Source: an uncultured Victivallales bacterium
Lineage (GTDB): Bacteria > Verrucomicrobiota > Kiritimatiellia > UBA8416
Assembly: GCA_964609395.1 (NCBI GenBank)
Contig: CAZSRU010000001.1
Span: 7,324 to 71,323, forward strand
Direction of reading: 5' to 3'
Length of the DNA: 64,000 nucleotides
In this document: piece after piece, positions 51,655 through 52,004 of the stretch
Layout of the letters: every line of letters begins with the position of its first letter
Position numbering within the stretch: the stretch's first letter is position 1
Position numbers and translations under genes: made by a program
The notes under the pieces: model-generated
Seen by the model: the letters and a program-made list of their open reading frames with translations, nothing else
Told to the model about the DNA's origin: nothing
Database searches by the model: none

Positions 51655-51670
51655 TGGCACGGAGGCTGCT
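51655..51670 (+). promoter_or_regulatory. sigma54 promoter TGGCACggaggCTGCT (-12 C is 15 nt before the ATG at 51684)
   Basis: Exact spacing; 13/16 consensus. Confidence 0.6.
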
Positions 51671-51683
51671 TCATTTCCGCGTC

Positions 51684-52004
51684 ATGACAGCGTTAGAAAA
51701 AAACACAAATCAGTTATATCGACAGAAGTATTTTGTTGAAGAAAGTAACGTGATTCGCTACCGACCACCGTCGGCGGCCCCTGGCTGTAACAAGGTCTCA
51801 ACGGTGATATCGAGGCAATCTGCTCGTGTGTCCGAGATCCGGGTTCCGTTAAACGGCCCCGCGCCAAGTTCCGATGCCCAGATCGCGGTGCAGTTGCTCC
51901 ATAGTGGGGCGGCGCTAAGCGGTATCCGTATCAAATGCCCGTGTGGACGGCATGCGGAATTGGATCTGGACACCCCTGCCGGTTTGAAAAAGGGGGGGGG
52001 ATGA
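51684..52004 (+). CDS. Hypothetical 106 aa ORF ending KKGGG on a G9 tract, stop overlapping the lipoprotein ATG (ATGA)
   Basis: ATG aligned with the sigma54 promoter like flgL, flgB and fliD; AT-rich atypical codon usage in its first third lowers confidence. Confidence 0.35.
   Translation: MTALEKNTNQLYRQKYFVEESNVIRYRPPSAAPGCNKVSTVISRQSARVSEIRVPLNGPAPSSDAQIAVQLLHSGAALSGIRIKCPCGRHAELDLDTPAGLKKGGG

Follow-up and report, generated by a model that had tools for sequence, protein, structure and literature searches.

In translational phase variation, a frameshift truncates the product of a gene (PMC6321876). In Campylobacter, where a cut-off of at least 7 G/C residues has been applied, poly-G tracts of 9-10 dominate and genes for flagellar modification make up the largest groups of phase-variable genes (PMC6321876). 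Two other kinds of system come close to the locus described here: coupled genes that overlap in ATGA, with the Shine-Dalgarno (SD) sequence inside the upstream open reading frame (ORF), which are known from many bacterial operons, and the RpoN-dependent flagellar promoters of Vibrio, Pseudomonas and Campylobacter, which work with two-component activators of the FlrBC, FleSR or FlgSR type. Here we analyzed a 64,000-nt stretch of DNA from an uncultured Victivallales bacterium (hereafter, the window), in which a small ORF beginning at 51684 ends on nine consecutive G residues (G9) directly before the ATG of a lipoprotein gene. An earlier note on this DNA had likened the G9 tract to phase-variable flagellar genes that switch by slipped-strand mispairing. 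Slipped-strand phase variation was not supported by our analysis: the tract is invariant in the assemblies, no fused products were found, and the tract lies outside the conserved cores of both proteins.

The segment 51655-53145 is probably a three-gene, sigma54-dependent flagellar unit of a bacterium of the Planctomycetes-Verrucomicrobia-Chlamydiae (PVC) group, in which G9 serves as the SD sequence of the lipoprotein gene and as the Gly-coding tail of the small ORF, and not as a programmed switch. According to this model, sigma54 RNA polymerase would start a few bases before the ATG at 51684, and the first cistron would be translated from a nearly leaderless mRNA into a conserved 106-aa protein with no assigned function. 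The last, poorly conserved codons of this cistron would at the same time provide the next gene with its ribosome-binding site, and the length of G9 would be maintained so that the two ORFs stay separate. Both proteins would have a flagellar role. The coordinates of the features are collected in Table 1.

Table 1 Features of the three-gene unit and of the adjoining promoters (positions in the window)
Feature	Position	Strand	Basis or remark
Sigma54-type promoter TGGCAC-N5-CTGCT (-24 GG / -12 GC)	51655..51670	+	Sequence, conservation
Small conserved protein gene, 106 aa	51684..52004	+	Homologues, alignment, dN/dS
A5G9 run	51987..52000	+	Encodes KKGGG tail; Shine-Dalgarno-like element of lipoprotein gene
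ATGA overlap, lipoprotein start/small-ORF stop	52001..52004	+	Sequence; translational coupling geometry
Lipoprotein gene, 256 aa, signal peptide and lipobox	52001..52771	+	Alignment; PelC-like alpha/beta fold of mature domain
Third cistron, 104 aa, no family match; ATGA overlap with lipoprotein gene	52768..53082	+	Kept after lipoprotein in L007, L009, L011
Intrinsic terminator, 13-bp stem and T9, closing the three-gene unit	53108..53145	+	Terminator scan
Second sigma54-type promoter TGGCATCCAGGCTGCT, ahead of flgF	53158..53173	+	Pattern scan; starts next transcription unit
Third sigma54-type element, ahead of flgI	56425-56440	+	Pattern scan

The sequence of the junction agrees with its earlier description. 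The small ORF begins at ATG 51684 and ends in ...GLKKGGG with a TGA at 52002-52004; the nine G residues occupy 51992-52000, five A residues (A5, 51987-51991) stand immediately 5' of them, and the lipoprotein ATG at 52001-52003 shares bases with the TGA. When other tract lengths were simulated, the two ORFs stayed separate at G6, G9 and G12, a fusion of 361-362 aa resulted from G10 or G7, and G8 or G11 produced a small protein of 111-112 aa ending in DERLVC. The statement that one added G merges both ORFs is thus arithmetically right, and the statement that the -1 frame stops after four codons has to be corrected to six extra codons. The tract makes up the last three codons of a variable tail, 5' of the lipoprotein ATG. 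As a result of this position, a slip inactivates neither conserved core: G8 adds six residues, and G10 fuses the cores intact.

The locus shares several features with the poly-G genes of Campylobacter jejuni (the maf family and others; PMC6321876), namely a G tract of 9, a frame change with each one-base slip and a flagellar setting, with a Maf/MptE-like gene (49057-50871) two genes upstream in the window. Unlike in C. jejuni, the tract stands at the extreme 3' end of one ORF, before the next, and there is no ON/OFF truncation. Length polymorphism among the assemblies and tract enrichment in the window are also lacking, and the host belongs to the PVC group and not to the Campylobacterota.

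We read the tract lengths from consensus assemblies (related loci are designated L001, L002 and so on). G9 is present in the window, L021 and L022 (window type) and in L001-L006, L008 and L020 (L001 type), the contig L020 being the only one returned by an exact-pattern metagenome scan for close relatives. The two sublineages, which differ at 10 of 288 small-ORF positions (~3%; synonymous divergence, dS, 0.11), thus carry G9 throughout at the assembly level, and at this level the tract shows the invariance in relatives that the earlier note had named as refuting its idea. In the 90% cluster of the small protein, all four member sequences, from 13 contigs, have 116 aa (gene callers start the small ORF at an in-frame GTG at 51654, which gives 116 aa; the homologues begin at the ATG). 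Neither a fused product (~372 aa) nor a -1-type product (~121 aa) was found among 5.8 billion clusters and 1.84 billion representatives, and all 23 matches to a query in which the small ORF was fused to the lipoprotein cover the lipoprotein part only. Relatives at 73-87% identity have no long run and carry G4 or G5, and GGAGG also occurs among more distant ones. Coding homopolymer runs of at least six residues are all equal in length between the window and L001/L002, and the T9 of the terminator differs by substitution, a comparison that is uninformative as to mutability.

Long G/C runs are not exceptional in the window, which has a GC content of 56.7%. Two runs of at least nine residues were counted against 0.63 expected, a number reached in 41 of 300 Markov-1 simulations, which is no enrichment in this one 64-kb window; G8 words are mildly enriched (9 vs 3.0 expected). 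The second G9 run (55798-55806, +) lies inside flgH (55739-56407), where it encodes the GGG of the signal peptide (LFLGGGGAV), a site at which a frameshift switch would be more typical than at the junction. This run is G9 in L001, broken by in-frame substitutions in L002 (GGGAGTGGG) and absent in L007, and no length variation was seen. A G7 run at 63751-63757 (+) abuts the ATG of an ORF that runs off the window (ggtGGGGGGGatgaagg), so that a G-run again stands at an SD position.

Across the relatives, the encoded tail changes, but a purine-rich, SD-like element persists 5-12 nt ahead of the overlapping start. The overlap, of the NTGA or TAATG type, is present in L001-L013, L015, L017-L019 and L023. 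It reads ATGA in the window, L001-L006, L008, L018 and L019, GTGA in L009, L013, L015, L017 and L023, TTGA in L010-L012, and TAATG in L007. The SD-like element takes the form GGGAGGAG in L010, GGAGG in L011, AGGAGG in L012 and AAAGGAAAGG..GGGG in L009; the corresponding forms are AAAAGGGG in L007, AAAAAGGGGG in L023, AAAACGGGGG in L013 and AAAAAGGGGGGGG in L015. The pairing of A5G9 with a generic bacterial anti-SD, used in place of the organism's own 16S rRNA, was predicted at -11.2 kcal/mol, which ranks fifth among the 66 starts of the window. SD elements are in general use in this genome, the SD-like element of flgH being a G6 run, and further ATGA junctions occur in the window, for example at 52768-52771 and 57962-57965.

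Judged from these sequence comparisons, G9 is most likely the lineage-specific form of the lipoprotein ribosome-binding site, embedded in the small protein's dispensable tail. A few substitutions would lead to it from a AAAAAGGGGGCG-type ancestor, and the family owes its Gly-rich tails, as a by-product, to GGAGG- or GGGG-type coding. A tail that coded for Gly without an SD would read, for example, GGTGGCGGT. Since the run itself would be the SD and abuts the ATG, a one-base change should hardly alter the SD-to-start geometry. The junction resembles known coupled gene pairs in its 4-nt stop/start overlap, in the SD-like element within the last codons of the upstream gene and in the retention of this geometry across orthologous loci, so that the two genes may well be translationally coupled. 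It differs from the usual pairs in that its SD is a pure G9 homopolymer running up to the ATG, instead of GGAGG at 5-9 nt, and in that its two products apparently end up in different compartments, the small protein looking cytoplasmic and the lipoprotein exported.

The sigma54-type promoter that had been proposed ahead of the small ORF is conserved in place down to 36-39% protein identity. Its sequence, TGGCACGGAGGCTGCT (51655-51670), has one mismatch to the sigma54 consensus TGGCAC-N5-TTGC, and the GG and GC elements lie at canonical spacing (TGGCACGGAGGCTGC, 51655-51669, one mismatch). A loose sigma54 pattern occurs in the window at chance level (7 vs 6.6 expected). The strict pattern GGYAY-N5-YTGCW occurs seven times against 2.3 expected, a count that 5 of 300 simulations reached, and all seven sites lie in the correct orientation just 5' of gene starts: those of a flagellin-like gene (17354), the three-gene unit, flgF, flgI, rpoN, fliD and a gene for a 185-aa protein (39328). 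The element is present at the orthologous position, amid diverging intergenic sequence, 12-18 nt before the ATG in L001-L013 and L015. In L018 and L019 it stands 40 nt before the ATG, together with an SD-like GGAG, GAGG or GGGAA, and in L014, L016 and L017 no sigma54 element was found directly upstream of the small ORF. A sigma70 scan near the small ORF found nothing above chance.

The window that holds this promoter also encodes RpoN (~60905-62443), two response-regulator sigma54 activators (32669-34153 and 39424-40800, both on the - strand) and a PAS histidine kinase. Based on the conserved promoter, the presence of rpoN and activators in the window and the excess of strict motifs just upstream of genes, sigma54 control of the small ORF appears well supported. 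The arrangement is like that of the RpoN flagellar systems in having -24 GG and -12 GC elements at exact spacing ahead of basal-body genes, and in having rpoN, two response-regulator activators and a PAS histidine kinase inside the cluster. In addition, a perfect TGGCAC-N5-TTGC is present at 60838-60853 (+), ~50 nt 5' of rpoN (ATG ~60905), suggesting that the gene is autoregulated or receives read-in from a sigma54 promoter.

The distance from the -12 GC to the ATG at 51684 is only 14 nt. Sigma54 transcription usually begins ~12 nt past the -12 GC, so that transcription would start near 51681 and leave a leader of ~3 nt. The start of the small ORF has almost no complementarity to the generic anti-SD (-1.5 kcal/mol, near the bottom of the 66 starts), similarly low pairing is predicted for the remaining promoter-proximal starts (17354 and 44967), and the first ~27 nt of the predicted mRNA are unpaired in the minimum free energy fold. 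The short distance between promoter and ATG at the small ORF is kept in most relatives. Four sigma54-type promoters of the window have the ATG 13-16 nt past the -12 GC, without an SD-like sequence: those of the flagellin-like gene (17326-17356, +), a small basal-body-region gene (MNDVTLLL...; 32660-32629, -), fliD (44998-44965, -) and the small ORF (51655-51686, +). This implies that several sigma54-dependent flagellar mRNAs may be nearly leaderless. The locus differs in this respect from the RpoN flagellar promoters described in the literature that we searched, since the -12 element, here and in most relatives, is only 12-18 nt from the start, which implies a leader of 1-7 nt with no SD. Literature searches on leaderless sigma54 flagellar mRNAs and on Kiritimatiellae flagella returned nothing directly relevant.

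The small ORF encodes a conserved protein. A search with the 106-aa product found 38 homologous clusters (103-152 aa, 50-97% identity), and a profile search of the 1.84 billion representatives found 50 proteins, all small and stand-alone except P0100 (1570 aa), which matches the profile in seven short stretches only. The alignment (A1) shows an N-terminal invariant motif, EKNTNQLYRQKYFV..V.RYRP, a C-terminal invariant motif, GIRIxCPCGRHAE, and a variable, often Gly-rich tail, where conservation is lowest. Conservation is highest in residues 1-28, with T8, N9, L11, R13, K15, Y16, V23, R25 and R27 invariant in 39 sequences. In the comparison with L007, the ratio of nonsynonymous to synonymous substitution rates (dN/dS) is 0.027, and 51 of the 61 nucleotide differences are at third codon positions. 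The homologues found are confined to PVC-group bacteria.

No Pfam or NCBIfam family matched the small protein above cut-off, a profile search against PDB sequences was empty, and Pfam found nothing in the most distant relatives of the protein. The AlphaFold model is of low confidence (predicted local distance difference test score, pLDDT, 63.7), and Foldseek gave no match at E < 1 with this low-confidence model. Since neither a signal peptide nor a hydrophobic segment was found, the small protein is probably cytoplasmic; it could instead be a flagellar export substrate. Distant members of the family (P0063, P0075 and P0104-P0110) contain C-x-C-G-x-H-x4-C (as in CPCGRHAELDCEY), which may be a metal site of the CCHC kind. 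Proteins of the window's clade have Leu, Met or Phe in place of the last Cys (ELDLD), and metal binding, if real, may not be conserved across the family.

The downstream lipoprotein also belongs to a conserved set, with 23 homologous clusters of 220-267 aa, none of which has a family assignment. The lipobox G24-C25 is present in at least 90% of the 24 aligned sequences, and the mature domain is conserved. The homologues begin ~18-40 residues before the Cys, which fits a start at ATG 52001, and a TAA four codons upstream in the lipoprotein frame of the L001 lineage excludes a longer ORF from 51935. Searches found no Pfam or NCBIfam family above cut-off and, by sequence profile, no matching PDB chain. 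The lipoprotein is like PelC in its lipoprotein signal with a conserved Cys and in its PelC-like alpha/beta fold, a resemblance and not a membership. It differs from PelC in sequence (7-13% identity), in length (256 aa, with extra N- and C-terminal segments, against ~150 aa for PelC) and in its genomic context, which is flagellar and not one of polysaccharide export, with no pel genes nearby. Twelve PelC lipoproteins assemble into a periplasmic ring (PMC12141448), and the toroid of PqiC is octameric (PMC10897342). Based on its fold and its strict association with flgF/flgG, the lipoprotein may be an outer-membrane-anchored, periplasmic accessory of the basal body.

We weighed other explanations of the junction against the SD function of G9. 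It is unlikely that the tract is a neutral by-product, that is, a chance expansion of an ancestral AAAAAGGGGG in an unconstrained tail, with the lipoprotein translated by ATGA termination-reinitiation only. Such an origin would agree with the poor conservation of the tail, with the few point substitutions that lead from the G5 form of L023 (AAGGGGGCGTCGTGA) to G9, and with the number of G/C runs of at least nine, which is not beyond chance; however, each relative keeps an SD-like purine run 5-12 nt before the overlapping start despite differing tail residues, the genome plainly uses SD elements, and the length is exactly G9 in both sublineages. A contingency locus, at which slipped-strand mispairing toggles among separate proteins (G9), a fusion (G10/G7) and a C-terminally altered small protein with displaced termination (G8/G11) and so makes flagellar assembly heterogeneous, is quite improbable in our estimation. 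In its favor, G9 is above the Campylobacter cut-off of at least 7 G/C (PMC6321876), the frame arithmetic works, flgH has a further G9 in its signal peptide, and L015 independently has G8 at the same junction. These points are countered by the lack of length variation in the assemblies of two sublineages, by the lack of any fused or -1 product in the protein databases, by the absence of a tract at 73-87% identity, and by runs of at least nine not being enriched in the window. Furthermore, the flgH tract of L002 was changed by in-frame substitutions and not in length, and no slip truncates either conserved protein, unlike the definition of phase variation in PMC6321876.

We hold it to be very unlikely, too, that the SD-derived G9 (and, independently, the G8 of L015) acts as a stochastic junction switch through replication or transcription slippage, leaving the small protein either free or fused to (or uncoupled from) the prolipoprotein. 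If true, this would mean heterogeneous assembly of the flagellar basal body in an environmental PVC bacterium, and phase variation acting on a gene junction and not within a gene. Recoding, in which a programmed -1 ribosomal frameshift at G_GGG_GGG (or at the AAAAAG before it) or RNA polymerase slippage on G9 yields a minor fraction of fusion from wild-type DNA, seems more improbable still. The lipoprotein frame is indeed the -1 frame of the small ORF, and the 0-frame AAG GGG GGG GGA holds an X_XXY_YYZ heptamer, which is a formal match only. An SD-like sequence close to a slippery site stimulates frameshifting in dnaX. On the other hand, the RNA structure downstream is not unusual (z-score -0.16, 52001-52080), the slippery sequence is not conserved, the relatives having GGGAGGAGTCCGTTGA, GGAGGCGTCCGTTGA and similar sequences, and the fusion is a single ORF in no relative. 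The fusion would also bury the signal peptide and lipobox ~106 residues inside, which should prevent export of the lipoprotein.

In view of the AT-rich first 25 codons of the small ORF, the earlier note had also considered a long sigma54-driven 5' untranslated region or a small RNA ahead of the lipoprotein gene. In this reading 51681 to ~51760 would be noncoding, and the true coding region would begin further on or be absent. The composition is as the note had observed, with GC contents at the three codon positions of 0.40/0.20/0.32 against 0.62/0.57/0.63 in the rest of the ORF, and the first 100 nt fold slightly better than shuffled sequences (z-score -2.0; 7 of 200 shuffles as good). The noncoding alternative is nevertheless refuted, to the point that we give it next to no credence: the most conserved residues of the family lie in these AT-rich codons, the differences there are nearly all at third positions (10 of 12 vs L007 and 13 of 15 vs L009), the equivalent ATG is the start in the homologues, and no Rfam family was matched in a scan of 51200-52600. 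The AT-richness is therefore explained by a conserved peptide rich in Lys, Asn, Tyr, Phe and Glu, and not an untranslated region or a small RNA.

Several considerations weigh against the SD and operon model that we favor. The transcription start, the leaderless initiation and the coupling are all deduced from the DNA of an uncultured organism, the pairing energies refer to a generic anti-SD and not to the organism's own 16S rRNA, and consensus assemblies would hide minority tract lengths within populations. A run of nine G residues is physically prone to slippage whatever its primary role. The G8 that the distant L015 independently has at the same place might reflect selection in favor of a long run and not drift; at the least it indicates, weakly, that the junction tolerates long runs. 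Finally, it is not obvious what function would be served by coupling a cytoplasmic-looking protein tightly to a lipoprotein that is exported. Overall, the locus is probably an ordinary flagellar operon, sigma54-dependent and translationally coupled, whose homopolymeric SD is unusual.

The unit is embedded in a large flagellar cluster, which also encodes FliF, FliK and FliD. A flagellin-type gene, the Maf/MptE-like gene, fliS (50885-51325) and a 99-aa ORF lie 5' of it, and flgF, flgG, flgA, flgH, flgI and a gene for a FlgJ-like rod-binding protein lie 3'. The order small ORF, lipoprotein gene, (orf104), flgF, flgG is found in all 12 genome loci and also in metagenome loci. A hairpin with a T-run similar to the terminator stands at the same place in L007 and L009, and a sigma54 element upstream of flgF is also present in L001, L007, L009-L011, L013, L016 and L018. 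These genes also occur in relatives whose metagenome-assembled genomes carry the labels Verrucomicrobiota, Kiritimatiellae, Lentisphaerales and Victivallales, which places the organism in the PVC group.

The neighborhood offered some further observations. The 99-aa ORF after fliS (51335-51634) and the 104-aa ORF keep their positions in the relatives and have no family assignment; Pfam and NCBIfam scans of the neighboring small ORFs gave nothing above cut-off. In L014 (668-1536) and L016 (3001-3944), the small ORF and the lipoprotein gene are separated by an extra gene of ~580-640 nt, and the small ORF closely follows another gene, with no sigma54 element directly upstream, indicating that tight coupling is not universal in the family. 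The window and L001/L002 are 83% identical over 8.8 kb overall, with 97% identity in the small protein and 93% in the lipoprotein. The end of the flagellin gene, a 171-aa ORF and the Maf (MptE-like) gene (48000-50900) are far more diverged between the sublineages and contain many indels, a pattern that fits a fast-evolving flagellin-modification region.

For genome scanning, the junction illustrates that, in a genome of moderately high GC content, a long G-run between genes may be nothing more than the ribosome-binding site of the coupled gene downstream, and that phase variation is not indicated by frame arithmetic alone. Sigma54 promoters this close to start codons are unusual, and several flagellar mRNAs of this organism should be nearly leaderless. 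The three-gene sigma54 unit recurs in Kiritimatiellae, Lentisphaerae and Verrucomicrobiota and encodes two uncharacterized, PVC-specific families whose genes are always found directly before flgF/flgG, a small protein with the CPCGRH motif and a PelC-fold lipoprotein. The latter is a plausible candidate for a lineage-specific component of a basal-body ring or disk.

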